64,000 nucleotides of DNA from Marsupella aquatica. Taxonomy: Eukaryota > Plantae > Marchantiophyta. The notes beneath the pieces were generated by a model. The model was not told the origin of the DNA, ran no database searches, and worked only from the letters and a program-made list of their open reading frames with translations. The stretch spans positions 30,605,328 to 30,669,327 of the forward strand of contig OZ316892.1 of assembly GCA_973895155.1 (NCBI GenBank), given 5' to 3'. The translations under genes were made by a program, and so were the position numbers. Within the stretch, counting starts at the first letter, position 1. Every line of letters begins with the position of its first letter. Of this stretch, positions 9,954-56,705 are shown one piece after another.

Positions 9954-9962
9954 AAGGGGAAG
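9954..9962 (+). promoter_or_regulatory. Copia polypurine tract
   Basis: AAGGGGAAG immediately before the 3' LTR. Confidence 0.8.
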
Positions 9963-15687: not shown

Positions 15688-15699
15688 TCAGCCTATTCA

Positions 15700-19069: not shown

Positions 19070-19134
19070 TCCTACAACGTGTTCACCTACACAATTTAAA
19101 ATGTAAAGTATTAGTTAACAACAGTCCCAACTAG

Positions 19135-37400: not shown

Positions 37401-38477
37401 CTAAGTGTCAGGGCCGCTCCTGGTCCTGATCCTAATCCTAAACTTGGAGATCAGCGCCCGCCCTGCCCACTCACGCCTCCTCCCTAAAAGGAACGGCGCC
37501 CTTGCACCGTCACGACACCGGTGGTGGATCCTTAATGGACGCCCCAACGCTTCCTCCTCAGCCACTGCCGTAGGCTCATTCTCTGACAGATTACCTGCCC
37601 TTGACTGAGTCAACTCTCCATCGGCCTGACTGGGTCCACCATCGGCGTCGGCATCGGTTACGGCCTCAGCCTCGGCTACGGTCTCCCCGGCCTGCTCAAG
37701 AGGCGGATCTGGAATACCGGCCTCATTACTGAGTAGTTCGGCTTGGGCCGCACCACCCCCACCTGTGATGATAGCGGGATCTATTGCCGTATTCATGCCG
37801 GAGGATGGTGCTGGTTCTACCTCTTTGGTCACCACGGCTTGTGGAGTCGGATTACTCCTTGACCCTGAAGGTTTCCGCTTTTTCTTCTTTTCTGGTTCGG
37901 CAGCTGGTCCCTTCCCCTTCCCACTTACTTCCGGCACTGGTGCAGTTGGCGCGGCTTTTTCTTCGGCCAGTACCACTCCTGGTAACTTGGTTGCCCCAAT
38001 TGGAGTTGGGCCTGATGAAGACAAGCACTTAAATACTGCGGCTTGTTTCTTTAGCCGCTCCGTTTGGTTGTCGGCCCGCCGCTGGAGGTTCTCCATCTTC
38101 CTCGTGATTTCCTCCAACTCCTCCTGGATCTCATCCAGGTCCTTGCGTGCCTCCTCTAGTTCCTTCTGGGCTTCCTCCCGTTCTTGTTTCAAGGTAGTCC
38201 TCTCCTCCTGGGTTGCTCTTAGCTCCTTGTTGAGCTCTGCAATGATGACAGACTCCATCTGGTTCATCTTGGCGTAAGTCTGTTCGAGCATCTCGTCCTT
38301 CTCCCTTAGGTCGGCCTTGAAGCTGGCCGTCAGGGACGCAAGCTCCTGCTGCAGCGCCATAATCCCTTGATAGGATTTCCCTAACTCGGCCTCCTTCTGC
38401 TCAAGGGCTCCGCGGATTTTCTAGAGCTCCCCCTTCAACGCCCATTCCTTTCTTTGGGTCTCCGCCATGGCCCGGCT
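37401..38477 (-). pseudogene. C-terminal part of the LTR-encoded ORF in the solo LTR
   Basis: Homologous to 41245-42216. A 1-bp G deletion near 37543 removes the normal stop. Confidence 0.9.
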
Positions 38478-38592
38478 TGTGATGCCTAGACAGGAATCAC
38501 TCGGCCGGTTAAGTGGGTAAAGCAGGAAGGCACCCTAGGAACACCTTAGTATAGTGACAAAACAAGGAAAATATAAACAATTAGGGGCAACC

Positions 38593-41500
38593 ATGGAACC
38601 CGGGCAGAGGCCGGAGGTAAGGCTGAGGGTGAAAACCCGATTAGGGTTAGGGCGCGTTAAGCGTCGGCGGCTAGGAAGGATCAACGGGAAGAAGGACCGG
38701 CAGAGGAGAGGGGTAAGGAGCGCTTGCAGGAGATGGTGGCTCATTTGCGAGCACGAACTAGGCAGACGACTACGGGAGGCCAACTACTGTCAGCTGCTTA
38801 GGCAAGCACTCGGGGAGAGAGTAGATACCGACGATCAACCTAAGGAGGGTATGAGCAACATCAATCAAGCGGCACATTTCTGGGGATGCCTGTTCGAACG
38901 GGCGACTGAGTACATCAAGACTTACGAGGACGAGGAGTCAGAAAGGGCAGCTCGAGAATGGCAGGAGCTCGCTCGATTGTGGGAGCTGCAAAAGACGGCT
39001 TTCTTAGGAGGCGAACTCATCAAGGACGAGTTCCTGTGGACGCCTACTTCCAATCAACTCGACGATCTTCTGTTTTGCAAGGACAGCGTCGTCGGCATCC
39101 GAGAGGCCATCAAGAACTGCAACGACATACACTGGGAATTAAAGGGTAGCACGGAAAGGTGGACCCAGGCAACGGTGCTAGGAGAAACCTCCACGGCAGC
39201 AGAGATGAAGAGGAAGGGAGCCGTCAACGATGAAGCCACCCCGGCAAAAAGAACGAGGTCGGCGGCACCAAAGAAGCCAGCCGAGCAGCAGAGCAGGAGG
39301 CAGGGAGAAGCCGAAGAGGAGGAGGTCGATCCCATCAAGGCCATTCCAACCAGGGATGACACCTGGAAGGGCTGGGCGGCAACCCTACCGGTGGAGGTGC
39401 AACTACATTTTGCACGGGAGGAGGATGCATGCTTTACGGCCATGCAGACCAAGAAGTACCAAGGCTTCATGGCCGGATCCGGCTTGGAGGCCTTTGTAAG
39501 ATTACCATGGCTGAAGCCGGAGGTACCGGAGTCAGACCTATTAGAATTCGTGGGGTCATGGGAACCCGAGACCAATTGCACGAGGATATATGGGAAGGAT
39601 TTCTATCTTACTCCCAAGGTGATTGCCGAAGTGTTTGGCTTGCCGATGGGCAATAAGACCAAAGTTGATACCAGGAAGACCTTGCCTGACAAGGAGTTCC
39701 GGTCGTTCCCCGGGCCATCAACGAAGAATGGCTTCTTCCGGAACACCTGCACCAACCCGCACATAGGAGAGATGATCGACTTCTTGCGGGTGACCATGCA
39801 TTGTAACTTGCCGAGGGCAGAGATCGGCAAGGCACAGGTCTATCTGGCAGAAAGGCCAGACCCAAGCCGGGACTACAACGGGTACCTCCTCAACCAATTG
39901 AAGAAGATCTTAAAGGAGGAGCAGCAGGTAATCGGCATGGGGAGCGTGTCTCGGCTTGGCTATCACATGCCGCTGTTGTGCCGGTATGCCAGAGGTCAGA
40001 CTTTTGCCCCGGTACTTCCCCTGCAGGTAAGGGCACCCGAGGAAGCTCCAACGCCGAGGCCGTTGGCTGAGAAGCCTCAACCACCTGTTAGTCCTACGAT
40101 CGAGCAGGTGTTTAGGCCCAGGAAGGAAGACTTGCCGATGCAGCAACCAGGCATGCAGAGTCTGCTGAAACTACTGGAGAAAGAAAAGAAATCGGCATCG
40201 GCAACAACAACGGCAACGGCAACAATGCAGGACACTACTACAGAGGTAGGCCTACACCGGCTCACAAGAGAAAACCCCTTTGCTGGAGACAAGGAGAGAA
40301 TCAGGCCGGAATCCAAGCCAGGTGTTCGAATGTACGTGGGAACCTCAAGCTCTGAATCTGAGGCAGAATTGCCTGAAGCTCCTACCGAGGAAGAGGAGAG
40401 GGAGAAGCCGGAAATCCAAGAGGTAGAGGAGGCAGTGGAGGACTGCAGCCATGATAATTCCGGCTATGGGTCGGACCATCACGTTCCAGGAGTAAGGACC
40501 TGTGGCCGGTTTGTCCCCACACTTCCAAGGGTAGTGCGAGGGGACCCCAACCAGCAGAGTAGCCCTGAGTCTCCCCCACCAGATGTTGCTCCCCCGAGCT
40601 TCGACGGCATAAAACAGACGGTGCAGGAATTTCAGGAGCGAATCAAGCAGGAGGAAGAGGCCGCCCTGGCTAAGGAAAAGGATTTACCAGGAGGAGATTG
40701 GCCGGAGGACATCAGGCGGCTAGCCGAAAAAGGAAGCAAACCTCTAGCCACGATTGAAGAGATCCGCAGGACGGCTTGGGAGCAGAGGCCACGATGGGCG
40801 ATGCCGATCACTTCTACTTACTCCACCTACGCTAAGAATAGAGCCATGGAGTATGGTGAGATGTGTGGGGAACTTGCGCTCGGCATCTTTGGAGAGGAGT
40901 TGGAGGTAGGACCCTTTTTCCATAGGGAGCAGTTGGAGAAGCACCAATTAGAAGAAGCGGTGGCTTTAGAGAGAAGCAAGAAGGACGAGGTCATTCGGCG
41001 GCTTAGGAGGATGGAAGCCGAGATTGAAGATCTAAGGGCGGCCAAGAAAGCCCAAGATGAACTGCGGATTAAACGACATGAGCTGAACATCATGCAGGGG
41101 CAGTTGGACGCCGCGCAGGCTGATAATCAGAATATCAAGGATAAACTGACTCAGACGCAGGAAGAGTTGGCCGACACGATCAAAGAAAGGGAAAAGTGGA
41201 AGCAAGAGCTGAAGAATACAGAGGAGGCCCACATAACAACCAACAGCCGGGCCATGGCGGAGACCCAAAGAAAGGAATGGGCGTTGAAAGGGGAGCTCGA
41301 GAAAATCCGCGGAGCCCTTGAGCAGAAGGAGGTCGAGTTAGGGAAATCCTATCAAGGGATTATGGCGCTGCAGCAGGAGCTTGCGTCCCTGACGGCCAGC
41401 TTCAAGGCCGACCTAAGGGAGAAGGACGAGATGCTCGAACAGACTTACGCCAAGATGAACCAGATGGAGTCTGTCATCATTGCAGAGCTCGACAAGGAGC

Positions 41501-42216
41501 TAAGAGCAACCCAGGAGGAGAAGGCTACCTTGAAGAAGGAATTGGAGGAAGCCCACAGGGAGCAGGAGGAGGCCAAAAACGAGCTGGAGGGGGCACGTAA
41601 GGACCTGGATGAAACCCAAGAGGAGTTGGAGGAAATCACGAGGAAGATGGAGAACCTACAGCGGCGGGCCGACAACCAAACAGAGCGGCTGAAGAAACAA
41701 GCCGCAGTATTTAAATGCTTAGCTGCAGCAGGTCCATCTCCTGTTGGGACAAACCAGTTACCAGGGGTGGTAATTGCCGAAGGACAAGCCGCGCCACCTG
41801 CACCAGTGCCGGAGGTAAGTGGGAAGGGGAAGGGACCAGCTGCCGAGCCACCAACGAAGAAGAAGCGGAAACCTTCAGGGTCAAGGAGTAATACGACTTC
41901 ACAGGCCGTGGTGATCAAGGAGGTAGACCCAGCACCGACCCCAGACAGGGTCACGGCTAAGGATCCAACTACCCTAGGGGAAGGGGAGGCCGAAGCCGTG
42001 GGAGTGGCTGAAGCCGAAGCCGTGGGGGTGGCTGAAGCCGAAGCCGTGGGTATTGCCGAGGCCGGTGTCGAGGCTGAAGCCGAAGGTGGACCCAGTCAGG
42101 CCGAGGGAGAGTTGACTCGGTCAAGGGCAGGTAATCTGTCAGTAGGCGGGCCAACGGCAGTGGCTGCGGAGGAAGTGTTGGGGGCATCCATTGAGGATCC
42201 ACCACCGGTGTCGTGA
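38593..42216 (+). CDS. LTR-encoded ~1200-aa protein (PMD/plant-transposon-like segment, acidic/Pro-rich linker, long coiled coil), 5' LTR copy
   Basis: Open from GTG 38554, first ATG 38593, alternative ATG 38851. Motif LLEFVGSWEPETNCTRIYGKDFYLTPKVIAEVFGLP at ~39540-39645. Heptad-rich region ~40930-41710. Confidence 0.85.
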   Translation: MEPGQRPEVRLRVKTRLGLGRVKRRRLGRINGKKDRQRRGVRSACRRWWLICEHELGRRLREANYCQLLRQALGERVDTDDQPKEGMSNINQAAHFWGCLFERATEYIKTYEDEESERAAREWQELARLWELQKTAFLGGELIKDEFLWTPTSNQLDDLLFCKDSVVGIREAIKNCNDIHWELKGSTERWTQATVLGETSTAAEMKRKGAVNDEATPAKRTRSAAPKKPAEQQSRRQGEAEEEEVDPIKAIPTRDDTWKGWAATLPVEVQLHFAREEDACFTAMQTKKYQGFMAGSGLEAFVRLPWLKPEVPESDLLEFVGSWEPETNCTRIYGKDFYLTPKVIAEVFGLPMGNKTKVDTRKTLPDKEFRSFPGPSTKNGFFRNTCTNPHIGEMIDFLRVTMHCNLPRAEIGKAQVYLAERPDPSRDYNGYLLNQLKKILKEEQQVIGMGSVSRLGYHMPLLCRYARGQTFAPVLPLQVRAPEEAPTPRPLAEKPQPPVSPTIEQVFRPRKEDLPMQQPGMQSLLKLLEKEKKSASATTTATATMQDTTTEVGLHRLTRENPFAGDKERIRPESKPGVRMYVGTSSSESEAELPEAPTEEEEREKPEIQEVEEAVEDCSHDNSGYGSDHHVPGVRTCGRFVPTLPRVVRGDPNQQSSPESPPPDVAPPSFDGIKQTVQEFQERIKQEEEAALAKEKDLPGGDWPEDIRRLAEKGSKPLATIEEIRRTAWEQRPRWAMPITSTYSTYAKNRAMEYGEMCGELALGIFGEELEVGPFFHREQLEKHQLEEAVALERSKKDEVIRRLRRMEAEIEDLRAAKKAQDELRIKRHELNIMQGQLDAAQADNQNIKDKLTQTQEELADTIKEREKWKQELKNTEEAHITTNSRAMAETQRKEWALKGELEKIRGALEQKEVELGKSYQGIMALQQELASLTASFKADLREKDEMLEQTYAKMNQMESVIIAELDKELRATQEEKATLKKELEEAHREQEEAKNELEGARKDLDETQEELEEITRKMENLQRRADNQTERLKKQAAVFKCLAAAGPSPVGTNQLPGVVIAEGQAAPPAPVPEVSGKGKGPAAEPPTKKKRKPSGSRSNTTSQAVVIKEVDPAPTPDRVTAKDPTTLGEGEAEAVGVAEAEAVGVAEAEAVGIAEAGVEAEAEGGPSQAEGELTRSRAGNLSVGGPTAVAAEEVLGASIEDPPPVS
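41990..42085 (+). repeat. 24-bp coding minisatellite (AEAEAVGV)
   Basis: GCCGAAGCCGTGGGAGTGGCTGAA units, with one extra unit in the 3' LTR (52873-52993). Confidence 0.85.
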
Positions 42217-43141
42217 CGGTGCAAGGGCGCCGTTCCTTTTAGGGAGGGCGGACGTGGAGGGAGGAGGCGTGAGTGGGCAGGGCGGGCATGGATCTCCACG
42301 TTTAGGATTAGGATCAGAACCAGGAGCGGCCCTGACACTTAGCTTAGTGGGATTGCGGTCCCACTGGTAGGAGCAACACTTGTGCTCCTGCCTTGCTGTA
42401 CATAGGTAGATTCGGGCAAGTAGATTACTGTTAAGTAGATTAGGCTTACGATGCAAAGAATGGCGGATCCACTACCAGGATAAGTACCTGGGCAGCGGGG
42501 AGCTCAGGGCCTCTTCTTTAGCAAGTTTTTAGTTTGCACCAGCCGGGCTGGGATCAAGTAGTACGAGAAGCTCTCGGTTAGTCATACAGTGACCCTTGTG
42601 TATATTCATGTTTCCTCATGCCTAAGAGCTGAATAGAGTTGGCCTCACGGCTTAGTTCGCAGAACTTGTGTATGAGATGTACTGTTTGTATGGCAAGTGC
42701 ATGGTATGACTCAGTCAGAATGAGTCATTTTGCTATTTGTGTGTCGCATTAACTTGTGTGAAGAGTGCCCACATCAACAGAAGGAAGGAAAGTAAGCAGG
42801 GGAGTGAGAGTTGGATGTGTCGAGCTGAGAGAGGTCTTAGCGGCTTAACCAAGCCTATTGGGGATCATTCCGGCGGCGGAATCCAAACATACCTAACAAG
42901 ACGGAGGGGAAGACAGGGGAAGACAGGGGAAGGCCTATATTAGGCCGGCTACGTATCTCATGACCCGATGAAGGATCTGTCCAGTATATGTGTGTAAAAT
43001 GTTAATAGTAGTAGTAGAAGGTTAGCAGCGTCCCATGCCGCTAAGCCGCGGAAACGGCCTCGCCAAGCGTGAAACCCGCAGGAATCGGCTTGAGCTGGGG
43101 GGTTGCTTGGGTTTAGGGAGCCATGGGACGCACCACATTTT

Positions 43142-43159
43142 TGGCGCTAGATGGAGGGG
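43142..43159 (+). promoter_or_regulatory. Primer-binding site
   Basis: TGGCGCTAGATGGAGGGG, 4 nt after the LTR. Resembles the PBS of Tat-type elements (probably tRNA-Arg; identity not verified). Confidence 0.8.
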
Positions 43160-43206
43160 GCATTTCTTAAGCCGTGAGATATGAAGTTAGAACGGAAGCG
43201 TAGGTA

Positions 43207-46200
43207 ATGACTGACCTTACGCCGAGGGAAGAAAGAGTGATTCAACGGGAGAGAGCTCGACTGCAGCAGCTCGCCGGGTGGCATGATACACAGCGACTGA
43301 GAGGGGCAGAAAGAGCTGGTAGCTCCGAAACTGGAAGTGGCGTCGAAGAAGACATACCAGAAGAAGAGTCGGTAAGGAGAAGTGAGTCTCCAACCGACAT
43401 GGGGGAACCAGAGGCACGGCCAGACGAGAGGCCAGGGACCAGATTGAGCCAGCGGTCGCGCATACGTTACAAGGCATTTCATGGGAGAGGAGATGAGGAT
43501 CCGGACGAATGGTTGGATGATTTCGAGGGAACCGCTGCAGCAAATGGAGAATCGGCCATCAAGATGCAGATTCTTCCCGGCCTGTTCAAGGGTGAGGCTA
43601 GGCCTTGGTACAGAGCATTAGATGTGGAAGATCAAGCCATCTGGGATATCTTCAAAACACTCTTTGTTAAGGAGTTTCGACCCATTGGAACTTCAGAACT
43701 AGCAGTGCTGAAGTTGGGACAACTTCGGTTCAAGGAGAACAAATCCTTCAGGAAGTTCTTGCAACGCTTTCAGAAACTGGTAAGACGTACAAAGACCAAT
43801 GCATCTGAAGGTATGCAACTTCAATGGTTGGTGAATGCTTTGCCACAGAAGATGAGTTTTGCAATTAGGAAGGAGAACCCGGAGACTTTAGCCGAAGCAA
43901 TTAAGGATATTCAATTATACATTAATGCAGATATCACAAGCCGGAAGAAACAGCTTAAGTCTGAGAGTTCCTCATCAGAGGAGGGATCACCCCATAAGAA
44001 AAAAGATAAGAAGAAGAAACATTCCAAGAAGTCTAGAAGTGATAAGTCAAGCTCGAATAGTGGGAGTAGCAAGAGTGAGTCATCTTCTAGTTCTGAAGAA
44101 GAAAAAACTAGGAAAAGGAAGGGCAGAAGGAGAGGGAAGACGAAAGTCAAGATGGAGGCTAAGCCACCAGATAACATCGTAGCCCTTACCGAGCAACTTA
44201 AGGCTATCATTGCAGAGGTAAAACCAAAGAAGAAGGTAGTACAGGAGGATAGCTCTGTATGGTGTGCCTTATGTTATAAAACCGGACACCATAAAGATGC
44301 TTGTCCTAAGCTTAATACTAATCATGTTCGGCATGTGGCCGAGATCAGACCATGTCAGGGAGAAGTAGAGTACTTTTTGGGAGATGCCGCTGATAGTGTT
44401 TTCGGCATCAGTGAGACTGGAGCACGAGACCTATCCAACAGACCTGCATCTCTATGGTCAGGGTTAAGGAACAATCCAGGAGAGATGTATCCTCGGATTA
44501 TTCAGAACCCGTCAGTACCTCTTAGGCCGAATGTGCAAAGATTTGCGGCGTGCTATAATTGTGGTCAACCTGGCCATTTTGCTAGAGAATGCCCGAATGC
44601 ACGCAAACAGGGTGATGGACAACCAGCTCAGCTATGTATGGGATGCCGACAGGAAGGTCATATGCTAGGGCAATGTCCTACTTGGTTGGCAGGCCTGGCC
44701 GTAAATCATAAGCTTTTGCCGATCAAGATCTTACCGCCAGGTACTACCCCCGAAGGAGTTCAAATCAACCACATCGAACTAGGATGGCAAGAGGATGCCG
44801 AGGCAGAGTTCGTACCATCTGATGATGAGGCCGAAGCCCTATCAACCTTCTCAGAGGAGGATTTAGATCATAATTGCTACCGGGTCTCTACTCGATCTAC
44901 CAGAAGGAAGGAAAGGTGGGATGGGCTGGCCAAAAATAAAGGGAAGGTTACGGAGGAAAGGATCGACTCTTCGTCAACATCAACAGAAGGAGAAGGGAGG
45001 GCTCCGGCAATACAGGTAAGCCATGAGCCCACCAGTGAAACCAATCCTTCACAAGATAGCGACTTCAATCGAGATCATCCTAAGTTGTTCTACCCCTCTG
45101 TTACGGCTAGTGTTAAGGAACAACTAAGAGAATTAGAAACCCTGGAGAATACCGAAGCCATTGCCAAGGATGTAAAACGAGCAAAAGCATTGTTTGCTTC
45201 GGAAGACCCAACAGCTGTGGAGACTAGCGTGGCAAAACTGGCCGAATCCAAGACGGAAACACCACCAGAAGAGAAGCCGATTGTTCCCTATGACCTGGCT
45301 AAAGATGTACTAGAATCTAGAGTCTCGGCAACAGTAGGTCAACTATTGAAAAATAGCCCGTACTTCCGGAAGCAATTAAGGAAGGCTATTCTCGGCAAGC
45401 CGAGATTACCCAAGGTAGCAACCAGATCCGACGTACTAATGATAGAAGAAGATCAAGGAGCCCCAGCATTACCATTAATGATTCAAGGAGAATTATTACT
45501 ACGGGTACCCATCGATGGAGGATCAGGGGTATGTATTATGATTGATTCAACAGCAAAAGGGTGGGGTCTAACACCGGAGATGACTGGAAGAGTGTTGAAC
45601 ATGGCCAATGGATATCAGGTCATTCCTACGGGAGTGTTAACCGGCATCAAGACAGAGATAGGAGGTATCTTCTTTAGCATTAACTATGTAGTAATGAAAC
45701 CGGTAAATCCTACGTCATTCCGGCTATTGATTGGTAGGCCATGGCTGTACCTAGCCGAGGTAATAGAAGATTGGGGTAAAAAGCAGTTCACTTTCGGGAC
45801 CCCCTCTATCACGGTATCCTGGGACACTAAGGATGACCGTAGGAAAAGCATAAGGGAAGTAGATGGGTACGATAGTGGACTGGAGTCAGCCGATGAAGTA
45901 CGTTGGTTAGAATGCTTCACTAACCTAACCGAAGAAGGTGTCTTTGGACCAGAGGTACCCCCCAGCGGATTATGGCAAGAACCAATGGAAGGTGACTTGG
46001 AAGAAGAAGACGAAGAGGTCGTGGACTGCTTTACAATAGAATCCACCTTTTTAGCTGCAATTCCGGAGGAAGTTAAGGATGTAGACCAATTGGATGAAAC
46101 GGCTAAGTGGGGAGCAGTAGCAGGGACAGTGGATTTTCTGCAGGCGTTGTGGCAGAGCCGACGGGGTCCACAACGCCATCGATCATCGGCAAGGAATTAA
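43207..46200 (+). CDS. gag: Gag-protease polyprotein (capsid, three CCHC knuckles, aspartic protease)
   Basis: FHGRGDEDPDEWL and GEARPWY capsid motifs. Knuckles CALCYKTGHHKDAC, CYNCGQPGHFAREC and CMGCRQEGHMLGQC. Protease IDGGSGVCIM and LLIGRPWL. Confidence 0.95.
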   Translation: MTDLTPREERVIQRERARLQQLAGWHDTQRLRGAERAGSSETGSGVEEDIPEEESVRRSESPTDMGEPEARPDERPGTRLSQRSRIRYKAFHGRGDEDPDEWLDDFEGTAAANGESAIKMQILPGLFKGEARPWYRALDVEDQAIWDIFKTLFVKEFRPIGTSELAVLKLGQLRFKENKSFRKFLQRFQKLVRRTKTNASEGMQLQWLVNALPQKMSFAIRKENPETLAEAIKDIQLYINADITSRKKQLKSESSSSEEGSPHKKKDKKKKHSKKSRSDKSSSNSGSSKSESSSSSEEEKTRKRKGRRRGKTKVKMEAKPPDNIVALTEQLKAIIAEVKPKKKVVQEDSSVWCALCYKTGHHKDACPKLNTNHVRHVAEIRPCQGEVEYFLGDAADSVFGISETGARDLSNRPASLWSGLRNNPGEMYPRIIQNPSVPLRPNVQRFAACYNCGQPGHFARECPNARKQGDGQPAQLCMGCRQEGHMLGQCPTWLAGLAVNHKLLPIKILPPGTTPEGVQINHIELGWQEDAEAEFVPSDDEAEALSTFSEEDLDHNCYRVSTRSTRRKERWDGLAKNKGKVTEERIDSSSTSTEGEGRAPAIQVSHEPTSETNPSQDSDFNRDHPKLFYPSVTASVKEQLRELETLENTEAIAKDVKRAKALFASEDPTAVETSVAKLAESKTETPPEEKPIVPYDLAKDVLESRVSATVGQLLKNSPYFRKQLRKAILGKPRLPKVATRSDVLMIEEDQGAPALPLMIQGELLLRVPIDGGSGVCIMIDSTAKGWGLTPEMTGRVLNMANGYQVIPTGVLTGIKTEIGGIFFSINYVVMKPVNPTSFRLLIGRPWLYLAEVIEDWGKKQFTFGTPSITVSWDTKDDRRKSIREVDGYDSGLESADEVRWLECFTNLTEEGVFGPEVPPSGLWQEPMEGDLEEEDEEVVDCFTIESTFLAAIPEEVKDVDQLDETAKWGAVAGTVDFLQALWQSRRGPQRHRSSARN

Positions 46201-49200
46201 ATACCAAGGGATCGGCATACAAGCCGATTACGAGGGCAGAACAAATTGAGGCCCTATTAGAAGCCGAGAGAGCACAGCGGCCTAACTCTCAGGAGCAAGA
46301 GGTGGATGAGATGGACAGACACGATCCAGAGCCAAGGCAGGAAGGAGAGCCGACCACTAATTCAAAACCGAATAGACCGGTAAGGGGACAATCTATGGAC
46401 ACCAAGGAAGGGACCGACTCGGCTAGTCCAGCCGAGATCCCAGTTTATGGAGGTATGAGATTAGAGAGACTGGAAGCCGAACTGGACCCGAATTTGAAGA
46501 AGCAGATTAATATGATCCAAGCACGGCAATATCGGAAGCTCGACTTAGGAGAGGGAAGAGAACTGAACTTAGGGAGAAACCTAGCACCTGAGCTCGAGAA
46601 AGAGATCAGTGACTTATTGATTAAATTTCAGGATGTGTTTGCATGGAGTCCCCAAGATCTAAAGGGCGTAGATCCAACACTAGGGGAACATCGAATTGAT
46701 CTCATGTTAGGAGCCAAATCATTTCGACAACCAATTCGAAGGATGAACCCGAAGTATTCCCGGCTAGTCAAAACAGAAATCGACAAACTAGTGGAAGCTG
46801 GATTCATCACTCCAGTCCTGCATTCAGACTGGGTGTCTCCAATTGTGATAGTTCCCAAAAAAGCGGGACCCGATGGTAAAACCAAGATCCGGGTTTGTCA
46901 GGATTACAGGAAGCTGAATGAAGCAACATTAAAAGACCATTTTCCTTTACCGTTTACTGATATGGTACTAGACATGGTAGCCAGTCATGAACTATATTCA
47001 TTCATGGATGGATACTCTGGTTATAACCAAATCAGGATTCGGCAGGAAGACCAAATCAAGACGGCCTTCATCACGGAATGGGGGATCTATGTCTTCAATC
47101 GTATGCCGTTTGGACTCTGCAACGCACCAGCTATGTTCCAACGATTAATGGTGAACATTTTTCATGATTACTTGAGAAAGTTCATGGAAATCTTCATTGA
47201 TGACTTTGCAGTATTCGGGAAGGCATCGAAACATGCTAAATACCTCAGGAAAACCTTCATGAGATGTAGGGAGGTGGGTCTCAAGTTACACCCAGATAAA
47301 TGTTTTTTTGCAGTAACCGAGGGGGTGCTACTAGGTCACAAGGTATCAAGGAAGGGCATTGAGATTGACAAAGGTAAGCTAGCAGTATGGCTAGATATCA
47401 TGCAACCTAAGAACATAAAGGATGTAAGATCCTTCTTGGGATGCATTGGTTACTATCGCCGGTTCATCAAGGATTTTGCCAAGCTAGCTTTACCATTAAC
47501 CAATATGCTCAAGGCAGGAGCAGACTTCGAACCCACACCCGAACGAGTCACAGCGGTGGTAGAATTGAAGCAGATGTTAGTAGAGGCCCCAGTCATGATA
47601 GCACCGGACTGGAACAAAGATTTTCATGTTTTTGTAGATGTCTCGGGCTTCTGTATTGGCTCAGTACTAAGTCAGTTGGATGAGAAAAGAAGGGACCATC
47701 CCATATACTTCGCAAGCCGTCAGCTTGCCGATGCCGAACGGAACTACTCTACCACGGAAAGAGAAGCATTAGGAGTCATTTATTCTTGTAAAAAGTTTAG
47801 GCATTATTTACTAGGGTACAAGGTAATCTTTCATACTGATCATGAAAGTTTGAAGTACCTAGTCAATAAGCCGGACCTTACAGGCAGAGTAGCAAGATGG
47901 ATTTTGCTATTACAGGAGTTTGACTATGAGCTGAGGATCAAGCCGGGAAAGTTACATGCCAATGCCGACTTCTTTTCAAGGATCACAGGTACACCTGCCA
48001 CGGATTGCATCGATGATCGATTCCCCGACGAGGAGCTATTCGTTGTGGAAATAGCTGGTACATGGTACCCTGAGATTTTACAATTTCTCAGCACTTCCAG
48101 ATTACAGCCAGGATTAAGCCGAGAGCAAGCCGCAGTCTTTGTGCGGAAGGTCAGACAGTATCAGTGCATTAAAGGCATACTGCACAAGCATGGAATCAAC
48201 GGCACGATTCAAAGGTGTTTGGAGAAGACAGAGGTAAAACGAGTCCTACGGGCCATGCATGGAGAGGAGGCCGGAGGACATTTTGCCCCAGTAACCACGT
48301 CTAAGAAGATATTAAATGCCGGTTACTGGTGGCCCACCTTGCACAAAGATGTCTATCAGTTTATCAAACAATGCGATCCTTGTCAACGAGCGGGCGGACC
48401 AAGGGCGTCCACCAGGCATCCACTGCACCCTATTCTACCTCTGGCACCATTCGAGAAGTGGGGTATTGATTACATTGGACCTCTGAAACCACTGACCCAC
48501 CCTCGACGGAACAAGTACATAATCCTGGCTACGGATTATGCAACTAAATGGGTAGAGGCCAGACCAACAACGAAGGATGATGCAATTACTACGGCTAGAT
48601 TCATGTATGAGCAGATCTTCACCAGGTATGGAGCACCCCTAGAATTAGTTAGTGATAGAGGAACCCATTTTTTGAATGATATAATTAGTCGTTTAAATGA
48701 GCAGTATTTAGTTAAACATAGGCCTACTACTCCCTACCATCCAAAGGCAAACGGGTTGACAGAACGAGCAAACGGAATCATAGGAAAGATATTGAACAAG
48801 ACAGTAGCTCAGAACAAACTCGATTGGGATGATAAATTGTTTGCTGCTGTTTTTGCTTACAATCTGGCCTATAAATCCACTACCGGTCATACACCCTTCT
48901 TCTTAACCTTTGGACAAGAAGCCCTGGTACCCACGCAACTTGAGATACCGACATTTCAAGTTACAATTGAGGAAAGAGCCTCAGCGGAGGAGAGCCTAAA
49001 GGAGCGAGAATATAGGTTAGAAGCTTTAGAGGAAGCGAGAATGATTTCAGCCGAGAGAGTAGAATATAGACAGAATATCATGAAGCAGCAGTATGATAAA
49101 AGGTTAAAAGTAGTTAGTATTCATACCGGTGATCTTGTGCTACTTTATGACAGTAGGTATAGTAGGTTTCCAGGGAAGCTTTACACTCGCTGGTTAGGAC

Positions 49201-49373
49201 CCTTTCGAGTAACCATGATGTTCCCCAATGGCTCCGTGCAATTGGCCAACATTACGGGAGAGGTATATCCAGTTCGCATCCATTATGACCGCCTCAAGAA
49301 ATACTATATGGACGAAGATGAAGTTGTTCGCGAGGACGCTTCACAATTAAGTGGGGAGCTATGTGATGCCTAG
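46107..49373 (+). CDS. pol: Pol (RT, RNase H, integrase) in the -1 frame relative to gag-PR
   Basis: WVSPIVIVPKK, DYRKLN, MPFGLCNAP, FIDDF, VDVSG, YSTTEREAL, TDHESL, H..GGH..C..CQ, WGIDYIGP, SDRGTHF and NGLTERAN. The stop lies inside the 3' LTR. Confidence 0.97.
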   Translation: MGSSSRDSGFSAGVVAEPTGSTTPSIIGKELNTKGSAYKPITRAEQIEALLEAERAQRPNSQEQEVDEMDRHDPEPRQEGEPTTNSKPNRPVRGQSMDTKEGTDSASPAEIPVYGGMRLERLEAELDPNLKKQINMIQARQYRKLDLGEGRELNLGRNLAPELEKEISDLLIKFQDVFAWSPQDLKGVDPTLGEHRIDLMLGAKSFRQPIRRMNPKYSRLVKTEIDKLVEAGFITPVLHSDWVSPIVIVPKKAGPDGKTKIRVCQDYRKLNEATLKDHFPLPFTDMVLDMVASHELYSFMDGYSGYNQIRIRQEDQIKTAFITEWGIYVFNRMPFGLCNAPAMFQRLMVNIFHDYLRKFMEIFIDDFAVFGKASKHAKYLRKTFMRCREVGLKLHPDKCFFAVTEGVLLGHKVSRKGIEIDKGKLAVWLDIMQPKNIKDVRSFLGCIGYYRRFIKDFAKLALPLTNMLKAGADFEPTPERVTAVVELKQMLVEAPVMIAPDWNKDFHVFVDVSGFCIGSVLSQLDEKRRDHPIYFASRQLADAERNYSTTEREALGVIYSCKKFRHYLLGYKVIFHTDHESLKYLVNKPDLTGRVARWILLLQEFDYELRIKPGKLHANADFFSRITGTPATDCIDDRFPDEELFVVEIAGTWYPEILQFLSTSRLQPGLSREQAAVFVRKVRQYQCIKGILHKHGINGTIQRCLEKTEVKRVLRAMHGEEAGGHFAPVTTSKKILNAGYWWPTLHKDVYQFIKQCDPCQRAGGPRASTRHPLHPILPLAPFEKWGIDYIGPLKPLTHPRRNKYIILATDYATKWVEARPTTKDDAITTARFMYEQIFTRYGAPLELVSDRGTHFLNDIISRLNEQYLVKHRPTTPYHPKANGLTERANGIIGKILNKTVAQNKLDWDDKLFAAVFAYNLAYKSTTGHTPFFLTFGQEALVPTQLEIPTFQVTIEERASAEESLKEREYRLEALEEARMISAERVEYRQNIMKQQYDKRLKVVSIHTGDLVLLYDSRYSRFPGKLYTRWLGPFRVTMMFPNGSVQLANITGEVYPVRIHYDRLKKYYMDEDEVVREDASQLSGELCDA
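46131..46190 (+). promoter_or_regulatory. Predicted -1 programmed ribosomal frameshift signal
   Basis: In-phase G GAT TTT (46131-46137), 5-nt spacer, perfect 10-bp stem GGCGTTGTGG/CCACAACGCC. Loop GCCGA is complementary to downstream TCGGC. Confidence 0.75.
49349..49361 (+). promoter_or_regulatory. Polypurine tract
   Basis: AAGTGGGGAGCTA immediately before TGTGATG. The same context is seen at 14832-14866 in the related remnant. Confidence 0.85.
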
Positions 49374-52300
49374 ACAGGAATCACTCGGCCGGTTAAGTGG
49401 GTAAAGCAGGAAGGCACCCTAGGAACACCTTAGTATAGTGACAAAACAAGGAAAATATAAACAATTAGGGGCAACCATGGAACCCGGGCAGAGGCCGGAG
49501 GTAAGGCTGAGGGTGAAAACCCGATTAGGGTTAGGGCGCGTTAAGCGTCGGCGGCTAGGAAGGATCAACGGGAAGAAGGACCGGCAGAGGAGAGGGGTAA
49601 GGAGCGCTTGCAGGAGATGGTGGCTCATTTGCGAGCACAAACTAGGCAGACGACTACGGGAGGCCAACTACTGTCAGCTGCTTAGGCAAGCACTCGGGGA
49701 GAGAGTAGATACCGACGATCAACCTAAGGAGGGTATGAGCAACGTCAATCAAGCGGCACATTTCTGGGGATGCCTGTTCGAACGGGCGACTGAGTACATC
49801 AAGACTTACGAGGACGAGGAGTCAGAAAGGGCAGCTCGAGAACGGCAGGAGCTCGCTCGATTGTGGGAGCTGCAGAAGACGGCTTTCTTAGGAGGCAAAC
49901 TCATCAAGGACGAGTTCCTGTGGACGCCTACTTCCAATCAACTCGACGATCTTCTGTTTTGCAAGGACAGCGTCGTCGGCATCCGAGAGGCCATCAAGAA
50001 CTGCAACGACATACACTGGGAATTAAAGGGTAGCACGGAAAGGTGGACCCAGGCAACGGTGCTAGGAGAAACCTCCACGGCAGCAGAGATGAAGAGGAAG
50101 GGAGCCGTCAACGATGAAGCCACCCCGGCAAAAAGAACGAGGTCGGCGGCACCAAAGAAGCCAGCCGAGCAGCAGAGCAGGAGGCAGGGAGAAGCCGAAG
50201 AGGAGGAGGTCGATCCCATCAAGGCCATTCCAACCAGGGATGACACCTGGAAGGGCTGGGCGGCAACCCTACCGGTGGAGGTGCAACTACATTTTGCACG
50301 GGAGGAGGATGCATGCTTTACGGCCATGCAGACCAAGAAGTACCAAGGCTTCATGGCCGGATCCGGCTTGGAGGCCTTTGTAAGATTACCATGGCTGAAG
50401 CCGGAGGTACCGGAGTCAGACCTATTAGAATTCGTGGGGTCATGGGAACCCGAGACCAATTGCACGAGGATATATGGGAAGGATTTCTATCTTACTCCCA
50501 AGGTGATTGCCGAAGTGTTTGGCTTGCCGATGGGCAATAAGACCAAAGTTGATACCAGGAAGACCTTGCCTGACAAGGAGTTCCGGTCGTTCCCCGGGCC
50601 ATCAACGAAGAATGGCTTCTTCCGGAACACCTGCACCAACCCGCACATAGGAGAGATGATCGACTTCTTGCGGGTGACCATGCATTGTAACTTGCCGAGG
50701 GCAGAGATCGGCAAGGCACAGGTCTATCTGGCAGAAAGGCCAGACCCAAGCCGGGACTACAACGGGTACCTCCTCAACCAATTGAAGAAGATCTTAAAGG
50801 AGGAGCAGCAGGTAATCGGCATGGGGAGCGTGTCTCGGCTTGGCTATCACATGCCGCTGTTGTGCCGGTATGCCAGAGGTCAGACTTTTGCCCCGGTACT
50901 TCCCCTGCAGGTAAGGGCACCCGAGGAAGCTCCAACGCCGAGGCCGTTGGCTGAGAAGCCTCAACCACCTGTTAGTCCTACGATCGAGCAGGTGTTTAGG
51001 CCCAGGAAGAAGGACTTGCCGATGCAGCAACCAGGCATGCAGAGTCTGCTGAAACTACTGGAGAAAGAAAAGAAATCGGCATCGGCAACAACAACGGCAA
51101 CGGCAACAATGCAGGACACTACTACAGAGGTAGGCCTACACCGGCTCACAAGAGAAAACCCCTTTGCTGGAGACAAGGAGAGAATCAGGCCGGAATCCAA
51201 GCCAGGTGTTCGAATGTACGTGGGAACCTCAAGCTCCGAATCTGAGGCAGAATTGCCTGAAGCTCCTACCGAGGAAGAGGAGAGGGAGAAGCCGGAAATC
51301 CAAGAGGTAGAGGAGGCAGTGGAGGACTGCAGCCATGATAATTCCGGCTATGGGTCGGACCATCACGTTCCAGGAGTAAGGACCTGTGGCCGGTTTGTCC
51401 CCACACTTCCAAGGGTAGTGCGAGGGGACCCCAACCAGCAGAGTAGCCCTGAGTCTCCCCCACCAGATGTTGCTCCCCCGAGCTTCGACGGCATAAAACA
51501 GACGGTGCAGGAATTTCAGGAGCGAATCAAGCAGGAGGAAGAGGCCGCCCTGGCTAAGGAAAAGGATTTACCAGGAGGAGATTGGCCGGAGGACATCAGG
51601 CGGCTAGCCGAAAAAGGAAGCAAACCTCTAGCCACGATTGAAGAGATCCGCAGGACGGCTTGGGAGCAGAGGCCACGATGGGCGATGCCGATCACTTCTA
51701 CTTACTCCACCTACGCTAAGAATAGAGCCATGGAGTATGGTGAGATGTGTGGGGAACTTGCGCTCGGCATCTTTGGAGAGGAGTTGGAGGTAGGACCCTT
51801 TTTCCATAGGGAGCAGTTGGAGAAGCACCAATTAGAAGAAGCGGTGGCTTTAGAGAGAAGCAAGAAGGACGAGGTCATTCGGCGGCTTAGGAGGATGGAA
51901 GCCGAGATTGAAGATCTAAGGGCGGCCAAGAAAGCCCAAGATGAACTGCGGATTAAACGACATGAGCTGAACATCATGCAGGGGCAGTTGGACGCCGCGC
52001 AGGCTGATAATCAGAATATCAAGGATAAACTGACTCAGACGCAGGAAGAGTTGGCCGACACGATCAAAGAAAGGGAAAAGTGGAAGCAAGAGCTGAAGAA
52101 TACAGAGGAGGCCCACATAACAACCAACAGCCGGGCCATGGCGGAGACCCAAAGAAAGGAATGGGCGTTGAAAGGGGAGCTCGAGAAAATCCGCGGAGCC
52201 CTTGAGCAGAAGGAGGTCGAGTTAGGGAAATCCTATCAAGGGATTATGGCGCTGCAGCAGGAGCTTGCGTCCCTGACGGCCAGCTTCAAGGCCGACCTAA

Positions 52301-54045
52301 GGGAGAAGGACGAGATGCTCGAACAGACTTACGCCAAGATGAACCAGATGGAGTCTGTCATCATTGCAGAGCTCGACAAGGAGCTAAGAGCAACCCAGGA
52401 GGAGAAGGCTACCTTGAAGAAGGAATTGGAGGAAGCCCACAGGGAGCAGGAGGAGGCCAAAAACGAGCTGGAGGGGGCACGTAAGGACCTGGATGAAACC
52501 CAAGAGGAGTTGGAGGAAATCACGAGGAAGATGGAGAACCTACAGCGGCGGGCCGACAACCAAACAGAGCGGCTGAAGAAACAAGCCGCAGTATTTAAAT
52601 GCTTAGCTGTAGCAGGTCCATCTCCTGTTGGGACAAACCAGTTACCAGGGGTGGTAATTGCCGAAGGACAAGCCGCGCCACCTGCACCAGTGCCGGAGGT
52701 AAGTGGGAAGGGGAAGGGACCAGCTGCCGAGCCACCAACGAAGAAGAAGCGGAAACCTTCAGGGTCAAGGAGTAATACGACTTCACAGGCCGTGGTGATC
52801 AAGGAGGTAGACCCAGCACCGACCCCAGACAGGGTCACGGCTAAGGATCCAACTACCCTAGGGGAAGGGGAGGCCGAAGCCGTGGGAGTGGCTGAGGCCG
52901 AAGCCGTGGGAGTGGCTGAAGCCGAAGCCGTGGGGGTGGCTGAAGCCAAAGCCGTGGGTATTGCCGAGGCCGGTGTCGAGGCTGAAGCCGAAGGTGGACC
53001 CAGTCAGGCCGAGGAAGAGTTGACTCGGTCAAGGGCAGGTAATCTGTCAGTAGGCGGGCCAACGGCAGTGGCTGCGGAGGAAGTGTTGGGGGCGTCCATT
53101 GAGGATCCACCACCGGTGTCGTGACGGTGCAAGGGCGCCGTTCCTTTTAGGGAGGGCGGACGTGGAGGGAGGAGGCGTGAGTGGGCAGGGCGGGCACGGA
53201 TCTCCACGTTTAGGATTAGGATCAGAACCAGGAGCGGCCCTGACACTTAGCTTAGTGGGATTGCGGTCCCACTGGTAGGAGCAACACTTGTGCTCCTGCC
53301 TTGCTGTACATAGGTAGATTCGGGCAAGTAGATTACTGTTAAGTAGATTAGGCTTACGATGCAAAGAATGGCGGATCCACTACCAGGATAAGTACCTGGG
53401 CAGCGGGGAGCTCAGGGCCTCTTCTTTAGCAAGTTTTTAGTTTGCACCAGCCGGGCTGGGATCAAGTAGTACGAGAAGCTCTCGGTTAGTCATACAGTGA
53501 CCCTTGTGTATATTCATGTTTCCTCATGCCTAAGAGCTGAATAGAGTTGGCCTCACGGCTTAGTTCGCAGAACTTGTGTATGAGATGTACTGTTTGTATG
53601 GCAAGTGCATGGTATGACTCAGTCAGAATGAGTCATTTTGCTATTTGTGTGTCGCATTAACTTGTGTGAAGAGTGCCCACATCAACAGAAGGAAGGAAAG
53701 TAAGCAGGGGAGTGAGAGTTGGATGTGTCGAGCTGAGAGAGGTCTTAGCGGCTTAACCAAGCCTATTGGGGATCATTCCGGCGGCGGAATCCAAACATAC
53801 CTAACAAGACGGAGGGGAAGACAGGGGAAGACAGGGGAAGGCCTATATTAGGCCGGCTACGTATCTCATGACCCGATGAAGGATCTGTCCAGTATATGTG
53901 TGTAAAATGTTAATAGTAGTAGTAGAAGGTTAGCAGCGTCCCATGCCGCTAAGCCGCGGAAACGGCCTCGCCAAGCGTGAAACCCGCGGGAATCGGCTTG
54001 AGCTGGGGGGTTGCTTGGGTTTAGGGAGCCATGGGACGCACCACA
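49362..54045 (+). repeat. 3' LTR (4684 bp)
   Basis: Copy of 38478-43137 with a 24-bp insertion, followed by TSD CGGCT. Confidence 0.96.
49477..53124 (+). CDS. LTR-encoded protein, 3' LTR copy
   Basis: Open from GTG 49438, first ATG 49477. Nearly identical to the 5' copy, with 8 extra aa. Confidence 0.85.
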   Translation: MEPGQRPEVRLRVKTRLGLGRVKRRRLGRINGKKDRQRRGVRSACRRWWLICEHKLGRRLREANYCQLLRQALGERVDTDDQPKEGMSNVNQAAHFWGCLFERATEYIKTYEDEESERAARERQELARLWELQKTAFLGGKLIKDEFLWTPTSNQLDDLLFCKDSVVGIREAIKNCNDIHWELKGSTERWTQATVLGETSTAAEMKRKGAVNDEATPAKRTRSAAPKKPAEQQSRRQGEAEEEEVDPIKAIPTRDDTWKGWAATLPVEVQLHFAREEDACFTAMQTKKYQGFMAGSGLEAFVRLPWLKPEVPESDLLEFVGSWEPETNCTRIYGKDFYLTPKVIAEVFGLPMGNKTKVDTRKTLPDKEFRSFPGPSTKNGFFRNTCTNPHIGEMIDFLRVTMHCNLPRAEIGKAQVYLAERPDPSRDYNGYLLNQLKKILKEEQQVIGMGSVSRLGYHMPLLCRYARGQTFAPVLPLQVRAPEEAPTPRPLAEKPQPPVSPTIEQVFRPRKKDLPMQQPGMQSLLKLLEKEKKSASATTTATATMQDTTTEVGLHRLTRENPFAGDKERIRPESKPGVRMYVGTSSSESEAELPEAPTEEEEREKPEIQEVEEAVEDCSHDNSGYGSDHHVPGVRTCGRFVPTLPRVVRGDPNQQSSPESPPPDVAPPSFDGIKQTVQEFQERIKQEEEAALAKEKDLPGGDWPEDIRRLAEKGSKPLATIEEIRRTAWEQRPRWAMPITSTYSTYAKNRAMEYGEMCGELALGIFGEELEVGPFFHREQLEKHQLEEAVALERSKKDEVIRRLRRMEAEIEDLRAAKKAQDELRIKRHELNIMQGQLDAAQADNQNIKDKLTQTQEELADTIKEREKWKQELKNTEEAHITTNSRAMAETQRKEWALKGELEKIRGALEQKEVELGKSYQGIMALQQELASLTASFKADLREKDEMLEQTYAKMNQMESVIIAELDKELRATQEEKATLKKELEEAHREQEEAKNELEGARKDLDETQEELEEITRKMENLQRRADNQTERLKKQAAVFKCLAVAGPSPVGTNQLPGVVIAEGQAAPPAPVPEVSGKGKGPAAEPPTKKKRKPSGSRSNTTSQAVVIKEVDPAPTPDRVTAKDPTTLGEGEAEAVGVAEAEAVGVAEAEAVGVAEAKAVGIAEAGVEAEAEGGPSQAEEELTRSRAGNLSVGGPTAVAAEEVLGASIEDPPPVS

Positions 54046-56705
54046 CGGCTGTTGGCTGTTATGTGGGCCTCCTCTGTATTCTTCAGCTCTTGCTTCCACT
54101 TCTCCCTCTCTTTGATCGTGTCGGCCAACTCTCCCTGCGTCTGAGTCAGTTTATCCTTGATATTCTGATTATCAGCCTGGGCGGTGTCCAACTGCCCCTG
54201 CATAATGTTCAGCTCATGTCGTTTAATCCGCAGTTCATCTTGGGCTTTCTTGGCCGCCCTTAGATCTTCAATCTCGGCTTCCATCCTCCTAAGCCGCCGA
54301 ATGACCTCGTCCTTCTTGCTTCTCTCTAAAGCCACCGCTTCTTCTAATTGGTGCTTCTCCAACTGCTCCTTATGGAAAAAGGGTCCTACTTCCAACTCCT
54401 CTCCAAAGATGTCGAGCGCAAGTTCCCCACACATCTCACCATACTCCATGGCTCTATTCTTAGCGTAGGTGGAGTAAGTAGAAGTGATCGGCATCGCCCA
54501 TCGCGGCCTCTGCTCCCAAGCCGTCTTGCGGATCTCTTCAATCGTGGCTAGAGGTTTGCTTCCTTTTTTGGCTAGCCGCCTGATGTCCTCCGGCCAATCT
54601 CCTCCTGGTAAATCCTTTTCCCTAGCCAGGGCTGCCTCCTCTTCCTGCTTGATTCGCTCCTGAAATTCCTGCACCGTCTGTTTTATGCCGTCGAAGCTCG
54701 GGGGAGCAACATCTGGTGGGGGAGACTCAGGGCTACTCTGCTGGTTGGGGTCCCCTCGCACTACCCTTGGAAGTGTGGGGACAAACCGGCCACAGGTCCT
54801 TACTCCTGGGACGTGATGGTCCGACCCATAGCCGGAATTATCATGGCTGCAGTCCTCCACTGCCTCCTCTACTTCTTGGCCGTCCGGCTTCTCCCTCTCC
54901 TCTTCGTCGGTAGGAGCTTCAGGCAATTCTGCCTCAGATTCGGAGCTTGAGATTCCCACATACATTCGAACACCTGGCTTGGATTCAGGCCTGATTTTCT
55001 CCTTGTCTCCAGCAAAGGGGTTTTCTCTTGTGAGCCGGTGTAGGCCTACCTCTGTAGTAGTGTCCTGCATTGTTGCCATTGCCGTTGTTGTTGCCGATGC
55101 CGATTTCTTTTCTTTCTCCAGTAGTTTCAGCAGACTCTGCATGCCTGGTTGCTGCATCGGCAAGTCCTCCTTCCTGGGCCTAAACACCTGCTCGATCGTA
55201 GGGCTAACAGGTGGTTGAGGCTTCTCAGCCAACGGCCTCGGCGTTGGAGCTTCCTCGGGTGCCCTTACCTGCAGGGGAAGTACCGGGGCAAAAGTCTGAC
55301 CTCTGGCATACCGGCACAACAGCGGCATGTGATAGCCAAGCCGCGACACGCTCCCCATGCCGATTACCTGCTGCTCCTCCTTTAAGATCTTCTTCAATTG
55401 GTTGAGAAGGTACCCGTTGTAGTCCCGGCTTGGGTCTGGCCTTTCTGCCAGATAGACCTGTGCCTTGCCGATCTCTGCCCTCGGCAAGTTACAATGCATG
55501 GTCACCCGCAAGAAGTCGATCATCTCTCCTATGTGCGGGTTGGTGCAGGTGTTCCGGAAGAAGCCATTCTTCGTTGATGGCCCGGGGAATGACCGGAACT
55601 CCTTGTCAGGCAAAGTCTTCCTGGTATCAACTTTGGTCTTATTGCCTATCGGCAAGCCAAACACTTCGGCAATTACCTTGGGAGTAAGATAGAAATCCTT
55701 CCCATATATCCTCGTGCAATTGGTCTCGGGTTCCCATGACCCCACGAATTCTAATAGGTCTGACTCCGGTACCTCCGGCTTCAGCCATGGTAATCTTACA
55801 AAGGCCTCTAAGCCGGATCCGACCATGAAGCCTTGGTACTTCTTGGTCTGCATGGCCGTGAAGCATGCATCCTCCTCCCGTGCAAAATGTAGTTGCACCT
55901 CCACCGGTAGGGTTGCCGCCCAGCCCTTCCAGGTGTCATCCCTGGTTGGAATGGCCTTGATGGGATCGACCTCCTCCTCTTCGGCTTCTCCCTGCCTCCT
56001 GCTCTGCTGCTCGGCTGGCTTCTTTGGTGCTGCCGACCTCGTTCTTTTTGCCGGGGTGGCTTCATCGTTGACGGCTCCCTTCCTCTTCATCTCTGCTGCC
56101 GTGGAGGTTTCTCCTAGCACCGTTGCCTGGGTCCACCTTTCCGTGCTACCCTTTAATTCCCAGTGTATGTCGTTGCAGTTCTTGATGGCCTCTCGGATGC
56201 CGACGACGCTGTCTTTGCAAAACAGAAGATCGTCGAGTTGATTGGAAGTAGGCGTCCACAGGAACTCGTCCTTGATGAGTTCGCCTCCTAAGAAAGCCGT
56301 CTTCTGCAGCTCCCACAATCGAGCGAGCTCCTGCCGTTCTCGAGCTGCCCTTTCTGATTCCTCGTCCTCGTAAGTCTTGATGTACTCAGTTGCCCATTCG
56401 AACAGGCATCCCCAGAAATGTGCCGCTTGATTGACGTTGCTCATACCCTCCTTAGGTCGATCGTCGGTATCTACTCTCTCCCCGAGTGCTTGCTTAAGCA
56501 GCTGACAGTAGTTGGCCTCCCGTAGTCGTCTGCCTAGTTCGTGCTCGCAAATGAGCCACCATCTCCTACAAGCGCTCCTTACCCCTCTCCTCTGCCGGTC
56601 CTTCTTCCCGTTGATCCTTCCTAGCCGCCGACGCTTAACGCGCCCTAACCCTAATCGAGTTTTCACCCTCAGCGTCCTTACCTCCGGCCTCGGCCCGGGT
56701 TCCAT
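54046..56705 (-). pseudogene. N-terminal ~885 aa of the LTR-encoded ORF in the solo LTR, interrupted by the insertion
   Basis: Uninterrupted frame with high identity to the LTR ORF up to ...HITANSR, then a short read-through into the inserted LTR (stop at 54021). Confidence 0.92.

Follow-up and report, generated by a model that had tools for sequence, protein, structure and literature searches.

A window of 64,000 nucleotides from the liverwort Marsupella aquatica (GCA_973895155.1, contig OZ316892.1, positions 30,605,328 to 30,669,327 of the forward strand; coordinates below are those of the window) contains a 15.6-kb Gypsy retrotransposon whose long terminal repeats (LTRs) each carry a complete gene. 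Self-BLAST of the window identified a direct repeat (i.e. 38478-43137 versus 49362-54045) with 99.19% identity over 4,684 columns, the two copies differing by 14 substitutions and a single in-frame 24-bp indel. Both copies have TGTGATGC at the start and GCACCACA at the end, and the whole element is flanked by a 5-bp target-site duplication (TSD). The polypurine tract (PPT; 49346-49361) is located inside the integrase frame, in the last integrase codons, and the integrase stop (49371-49373) falls within the 3' LTR. A first-pass annotation, made from the sequence alone, had proposed these LTR limits, with a TG start, a CA end ahead of the PBS (primer-binding site) as well as the TSD CGGCT, together with a PPT overlapping the end of integrase directly before the repeat; self-BLAST and the sequence ends bore out each of these points. 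The 6.2-kb internal region consists entirely of gag-pro and reverse transcriptase-RNase H-integrase (RT-RH-IN), which occupy different, overlapping frames. This gene order (gag-protease-RT-RH-IN), the TG/CA termini, PBS, PPT and TSD are those of a Ty3/Gypsy element, and the element is a young, intact, non-chromoviral Gypsy retrotransposon, likely of a liverwort. Its features are as follows.

38473..38477, plus strand: left TSD CGGCT (right copy 54046-54050)
38478..43137, plus strand: 5' LTR, 4,660 bp, TG...CA, terminal inverted repeat 7/8
38593..42216, plus strand: LTR open reading frame (ORF), 5' copy, 1,207 aa
42217..42275, plus strand: possible remnant of an earlier terminal PPT cassette, made up of a GC hairpin, a pyrimidine run and a purine run behind the ORF stop; suggestive only
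42217..43137, plus strand: non-coding LTR tail, 921 bp, the size of an ordinary LTR, with TATA-like motifs at 42936 and 42985
43142..43160, plus strand: putative PBS after a TTTT spacer
43207..46200, plus strand: gag-protease ORF with Retrotrans_gag and zf-CCHC, and a protease motif recognised by eye and in alignments with relatives
46107..49373, plus strand: RT-RH-IN frame, intact, ending 12 nt into the 3' LTR
46131..46177, plus strand: predicted -1 frameshift signal at the protease/RT joint (heptamer G GAT TTT read in the gag-pro frame, followed by a 5-nt spacer and a perfect stem of 10 bp)
49322..49361, plus strand: active PPT cassette within the integrase end
49362..54045, plus strand: 3' LTR, 4,684 bp
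49477..53124, plus strand: LTR ORF, 3' copy, 1,215 aa, intact

The PBS-like TGG motif behind the 5' LTR is putatively of the tRNA-Asn type; no tRNA gene was present in 22 loci scanned. No Rfam match was obtained across 36500-57000, and folding of the U5/PBS region did not exceed that of shuffled sequences (z -1.11).

Each LTR contains one stop-free sense frame (38539-42216 and 49423-53124). Counted from the first ATG, the ORF fills 77.8% of the 5' LTR, in agreement with the original description of about 78% of each LTR as one intact sense ORF of ~1200 aa. At this base composition 1,207 stop-free codons would arise by chance with a probability of ~1e-24. On its antisense strand the LTR has ORFs of 182-224 aa, which are regarded as shadows; the sole minus frame with a low ratio of non-synonymous to synonymous substitution rates (dN/dS) has its third positions in common with the sense frame.

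A third LTR copy surrounds the element. On either side of the element lies one half of a solo LTR that belongs to the same family and is inverted (56820-54046 and 38472-36615), which opens with the same TGTGATG at 56820, has its other end at 36615 and carries its own TSD.

36610..36614, minus strand: solo LTR TSD GCATA (other copy 56821-56825)
36615..38472, minus strand: solo LTR 3' half, with a single premature stop, 1 nt deleted close to the ORF end and a terminal CA that reads TA
54046..56820, minus strand: solo LTR 5' half, older, 98% alike, with ORF codons 1 to ~885 stop-free

The full element has thus inserted into a solo LTR from the same family. As the element and the solo LTR each carry their own TSD, these were two independent integrations with the same limits, and the 4.6-kb unit is therefore a true LTR. 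The ORF had been described as present twice per element and once per solo LTR, and this was confirmed by the solo LTR with the TSD GCATA. The further suggestion that a solo LTR works as a stand-alone gene module found no support in the only solo LTR seen, which holds the ORF but is broken, being split by the insertion and having a premature stop and a 1-nt deletion near the ORF end. The solo LTR is also a mosaic, with ~98% identity over the first 3 kb of the ORF, 80-90% over a C-terminal part of ~0.7 kb and 99% in the tail. The insertion into it was head-to-head and gave rise to two inverted repeats, one of 2.8 kb (98%) and one of 1.9 kb (89%), which could form a hairpin RNA.

Selection on the ORF was assessed by comparison with the solo copy. 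Over codons 1-883 there were 30 synonymous and 23 non-synonymous changes, giving a dN/dS of 0.21 (P = 6e-8) with a minimum of 0.08 at aa 251-480, the core domain. Third codon positions took 33 of the 53 changes, and re-dealing the same 53 changes in a simulation that kept the substitution types gave P = 2e-4. Shifted sense frames yielded dN/dS values of 1.0 and 1.5. Indels in the stop-free parts of the ORF were all multiples of three (i.e. 3, 21 and 24 nt). The ORF is under purifying selection, as obtained from the comparison of copies that the first-pass annotation had suggested, and this selection acted in the present layout because both of the compared copies already had the ORF in the LTR. 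Codons 1-86, with two synonymous and three non-synonymous changes (P = 0.35), are too alike for such a test. The C-terminal part, a far more diverged block, had a dN/dS of 0.46, and its divergence suggests recombination between subfamilies.

The ORF protein has a basic N-terminus, a domain at aa ~87-215 with unnamed homologues, the core domain at aa ~250-480, an acidic/proline-rich linker, a heptad-rich charged helical region at aa ~790-1050 that is a putative coiled coil, and a low-complexity tail; there are three basic clusters. No transmembrane segment was detected, the top 19-residue hydropathy being 1.11, and in this respect the protein is not env-like. Pfam gave nothing for the ORF beyond coiled-coil noise. 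A HMMER search with aa 51-480 found 21 proteins at E <=0.001, the best being 41% identical over the core domain; two of the ten that were looked up are Calypogeia fissa proteins and eight had no informative name. These 21 homologues had no Transposase_32 or ATHILA match in Pfam at E 0.1. A word-indexed protein search for a full-length homologue found none among 7,993 candidates; a second (0 of 3,582) covered only proteins of 1,303-3,720 aa and hence says little. A search of viral contigs gave no relative.

Leads from Atlas for the ORF were Transposase_32 (0.88) and ATHILA ORF-1 (0.87), both below the range in which Atlas is reliable, and aa 80-230 gave no usable Atlas match. When a profile of 18 core-domain rows was compared with an alignment of 10 pieces of Transposase_32-type ORFs, the match by hhalign was weak (E 0.0017, with a probability of 15%), although its score of 29.1 exceeded those of all 20 shuffles (<=20.9). 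For the core domain, AlphaFold gave a mediocre model (predicted local distance difference test 61.5, predicted template modelling score 0.31), with no clear match in the PDB (best Z 4.5) or BFVD. We assume a kinship of Transposase_32 with PMD; no direct link to PMD (PF10536) was found here. An Athila 3' ORF carrying Transposase_32 and a nuclear signal has been described (PMC11728184), the Athila domain and VANC are predicted to oligomerise via coiled coils (PMC13547354) and PMD-C has been linked to the domain of VANC (bioRxiv 10.1101/2024.09.27.615353). The odds are about even that the ORF encodes a chromatin factor of Transposase_32/ATHILA type, nuclear and oligomeric, that would serve the element through counter-silencing or integration help, rather than an envelope.

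The nearest named RT-RH matches were from the liverwort Calypogeia fissa (69-70%). A quick IQ-TREE phylogeny of 37 rows picked from 111, without REXdb references, placed the element with two Calypogeia rows and P0006 (100), with the relative L001 (Shimodaira-Hasegawa-like approximate likelihood ratio test 95) and with Riccia rows (99). Athila-type rows that bear Transposase_32 (100) and those whose RNase H is degenerate (99) fell elsewhere. The RT phylogeny envisaged at the outset therefore groups the element with liverwort rows; in this quick tree its RT-RH-IN belongs to a separate liverwort-containing clade at an open fork beside the Athila-type rows. The acidic residues of the native RNase H are retained, whereas Tat elements have a degenerate native RNase H. 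There was no RVT_3 match indicative of an additional RNase H (aRH), as found in Tat elements (TatI-III, Ogre, Retand), and no Pfam chromodomain match, the integrase frame stopping at the LTR start, unlike in chromoviruses. Tat Z1/Z2 are liverwort Tat elements without an aRH (PMC10508981). Phygy and Selgy have a 4-bp TSD, a Trp or Ala PBS and no extra ORF, whereas this element has 5-bp TSDs and a long extra ORF.

Athila elements (REXdb non-chromovirus/OTA/Athila) have a sense extra ORF at the 3' side (ATHILA ORF1, PF03078; Transposase_32, PF20167). The element shares with them a 5-bp TSD and the lack of an aRH, a chromodomain or any extra polyprotein domain, and its size is within their range of 7.3-22.8 kb; the Athila PBS is for tRNA-Asp, -Asn or -Ala (PMC6317226). 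A sense extra ORF 3' of pol and an extra PPT are further likenesses (PMC2829016). In contrast to REXdb Athila, whose extra ORF, when present, is in the internal 3' region, the ORF here is enclosed by the LTR, a 3' internal spacer is absent, the gag-pro/pol split follows the protease and the RT-RH lies, in the quick tree, outside the clade of Transposase_32-bearing Athila-type rows. TSD length, an intact RNase H and the absence of both aRH and chromodomain agree with Athila rather than with Tat, Phygy or Selgy; the element is therefore best labelled Athila-like and is not filed as an Athila member.

Relatives were drawn from one metagenome scan (79 loci), in which the core-domain profile matched two loci, L001 (E 4e-5) and L022 (E 0.0014). 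In L001, integrase is followed by a PPT-like tract, an ORF of 745 aa, another PPT, an LTR of ~990 bp that starts with TGTGATG, the PBS and gag. Its pol is 55% identical to that of the element, its ORF matched the core-domain alignment (hhalign 94%, E 1e-7, 114 columns) and its second PPT and LTR start match the active PPT and LTR start of the element at 39 of 45 columns. L001 thus shares a homologous ORF core, a near-identical PPT/LTR junction and a frame break after the protease, and differs in having the ORF internal between two PPTs, a shorter LTR and a stop codon instead of a frameshift at the protease/RT joint. This internal 3' homologue gives direct comparative support to the proposal in the first-pass annotation that an accessory gene was absorbed into the LTR. 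In L008, which has two real LTRs of 1,609 bp, a first PPT followed by TG is situated ~200 nt before a Transposase_32 ORF and the second PPT is at the LTR. L008 is Athila-type at 14924-18281, with the PPT-TG motif ahead of a 925-aa ORF, and the same motif is present in L022. L005 (1-18746) is a concatemer-like Athila-type contig with a 1,267-aa internal 3' ORF that has no Pfam match and a match of 95% to the Transposase_32-type profile; it was rejected as a second element with an LTR ORF, its 6,190-bp repeat lacking a TG start and having a PPT behind the ORF.

The best reading of the feature is a usual Athila-like 3' accessory gene that has moved into the LTR and is still under selection. Probably the LTR boundary shifted upstream: both the integrase end and plus-strand priming would have passed from a PPT behind the gene to one ahead of it, the left LTR boundary would have moved upstream to leave the gene in U3, and a decayed second PPT would remain behind the ORF stop. 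The best site in the LTR for both L001 PPT cassettes is the same place, directly after the ORF stop, leaving the tail of 921 bp. Extra PPTs are present in Athila4 and Calypso, and an upstream PPT is described as usable only with a proper attachment site (PMC2829016). This explanation as a whole, comprising an LTR gene acquired by a boundary shift, its location in U3 and a pol made by -1 frameshifting, is assigned a probability of roughly 0.68.

Several observations count against it. Between the element's own LTRs dN/dS is 0.59 and not significant (12 changes), as expected after insertion. The core domain has no Pfam match even at E 10, and its link to Transposase_32 is weak (i.e. no Pfam match, an hhalign probability of 15% and Atlas scores <0.9); the L001 ORF is also without a match to the Transposase_32 alignment. 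The relic PPT alone is not significant, with 28 of 300 and 45 of 300 shuffles scoring just as well, and the 921-bp tail has no detectable likeness to the L001 LTR (48 versus a shuffle mean of 49). The active PPT resembles the terminal cassette of L001 (39/45) and not the first; a simple switch would therefore have to include conversion or a switch of template. L001 itself is one collapsed, circularly permuted contig whose LTR limits were placed solely by its PPT and PBS, and no other close relative among the 79 loci came with context.

That match of the active PPT and LTR start to the L001 terminal junction favours a relocation, in which a deletion between the two PPT repeats removed the internal ORF and a template switch or capture then brought it into the original U3, ~115 nt behind the old LTR start; the relic also scores 31 against the first L001 PPT and 27 against the second. 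However, this route requires two rearrangements, the tail has the length of an ordinary LTR and a PPT-like motif lies directly behind the ORF, where relatives keep their terminal PPT (45-110 nt behind the ORF in L005 and L001); relocation is considered unlikely. The 0.3% difference between the two LTRs, with no significant selection between them, would suit an ORF that is a passenger without present function, open only since the copies are young. Its dN/dS of 0.21 against a solo copy that already had the LTR-internal ORF, and the multiples of three among the indels, make this very improbable. The L005 contig, with its internal ORF repeated on either side of gag-pol, illustrates how a long repeat could arise as an artefact of assembly or by later duplication around an element with ordinary short LTRs. 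Such an origin is scarcely credible here: the L005 repeat has no TG start and has its PPT behind the ORF, whereas the repeat here has TG/CA ends at the PPT and PBS and 14 scattered differences between its copies, and there are two different TSD pairs.

The ORF quite probably lies in U3, as TATA-like motifs are present in the tail and L001 has a TATA-like motif ~100 nt before its LTR end. The genomic RNA would carry the ORF once, at the 3' end, reverse transcription would duplicate it into both LTRs, and the protein would be read from the 3' copy via a subgenomic message, spliced or internally started, like MMTV (mouse mammary tumour virus) sag. With the ORF in U3, the main LTR promoter would be downstream of the ORF, and the 921-bp tail is predicted to hold promoter, R and U5. 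Alternatively, and compatible with either origin, the LTR could be a stand-alone module with the ORF promoter at its left end, so that 5', 3' and solo LTRs all make protein. A TATAAA at 38572, which is the sole hexamer of this kind listed for the LTR, the second Met at codon 87, where homologue matches begin, the lack of significant selection on codons 1-86 and the presence of a promoter within the U3 of MMTV sag (PMC4667437) agree with this arrangement. Only 115 nt separate the LTR start from the first ATG, though, which has a strong context kept in the solo copy; the TATAAA is too near this ATG to serve it, and the single solo LTR is broken. A stand-alone module is accordingly given a small chance, although the TATAAA may possibly be a separate promoter serving Met 87. 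That the LTR of this liverwort lineage is a self-contained cassette for a nuclear counter-silencing protein, duplicated at each replication, surviving solo-LTR recombination and acting in trans from solo LTRs, is more doubtful.

Production of Pol likely depends on -1 frameshifting at a site behind the protease. The hairpin at the predicted site (z -2.81) is the strongest of 3,065 40-nt windows in gag-pol. L001 has a stop at the protease/RT joint and P0006 is continuous there. G GAT TTT is taken by us to be a frameshift heptamer and the L001 stop context to be of the readthrough type. The recoding point appears to move within the clade, and here it follows the protease rather than lying between gag and protease. 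Protease is fused to RT in ~25 other relatives.

The closest functional parallel is MMTV sag, an accessory LTR ORF that is present twice per provirus, kept in solo LTRs and under purifying selection (PMC4667437). It differs in being an unrelated protein of a mammalian betaretrovirus and in having most, not all, of its sequence in U3. The sag gene has about a quarter of the length of the LTR ORF described here. Among LTRs, MMTV sag is presented as an exception (PMC4667437). Ogre, Retrosat2/Tekay and Burro resemble the element in their extra ORFs and in their LTRs, which are 3-6.5 kb long (PMC6431247, PMC3485330), and Ogre/Retand in having gag-pro split from RT-RH-IN (PMC6317226); in the excerpted descriptions, however, the extra ORFs are internal and the long LTRs non-coding, and Ogre has an aRH and Tekay a chromodomain, which the element lacks. 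More generally, published accounts put plant extra ORFs in the internal region or describe them only as lying up- or downstream of the polyprotein (PMC7264820; PMC6317226) and treat long LTRs as non-coding (PMC7264820, PMC6431247).

A narrow phrase search of full-text literature, which did not cover the sequences of Repbase, GyDB and REXdb, returned no plant element with a complete LTR gene in the text retrieved, and the excerpts of PMC12885004, PMC10508981 and PMC6673714 contained no such case. Two candidate precedents were discarded: ORF0 of Retrosat2 is described in the excerpt as upstream of gag-pol and not in the LTR (PMC3485330), and 'ORFs within the LTR' in that of PMC6673714 means ORFs between LTRs. 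A plant LTR-resident gene is likely a novel layout, and one that would be missed because pipelines mask LTRs. The element is a counterpart of MMTV sag among retrotransposons, and together with L001 and L008 it provides a concrete route by which an LTR could grow by kilobases, through movement of its left boundary to a spare upstream PPT. It also makes the role of Athila-type accessory ORFs testable through strong selection, alleles that distinguish 5' and 3' copies and retention in solo LTRs.

Other features were observed in the window. A Copia element (4330-10102) has LTRs that are very short (143 bp, 99.3%), and stops and a frameshift interrupt its polyprotein. Pieces of a CACTA/En-Spm transposase (Transposase_21, DUF4218, DUF4216) occupy 23811-27385 on the minus strand, and two related 28-bp tandem arrays (19243-19524 and 35847-36312) may be CACTA subterminal repeats. 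Between these arrays is a PHD-finger-like ORF (30167-30691, minus strand) with weak NSD-type matches. ORFs of 490 and 209 aa in one frame at 17012-19114 (minus strand) have no Pfam match and are transposon-like by eye.

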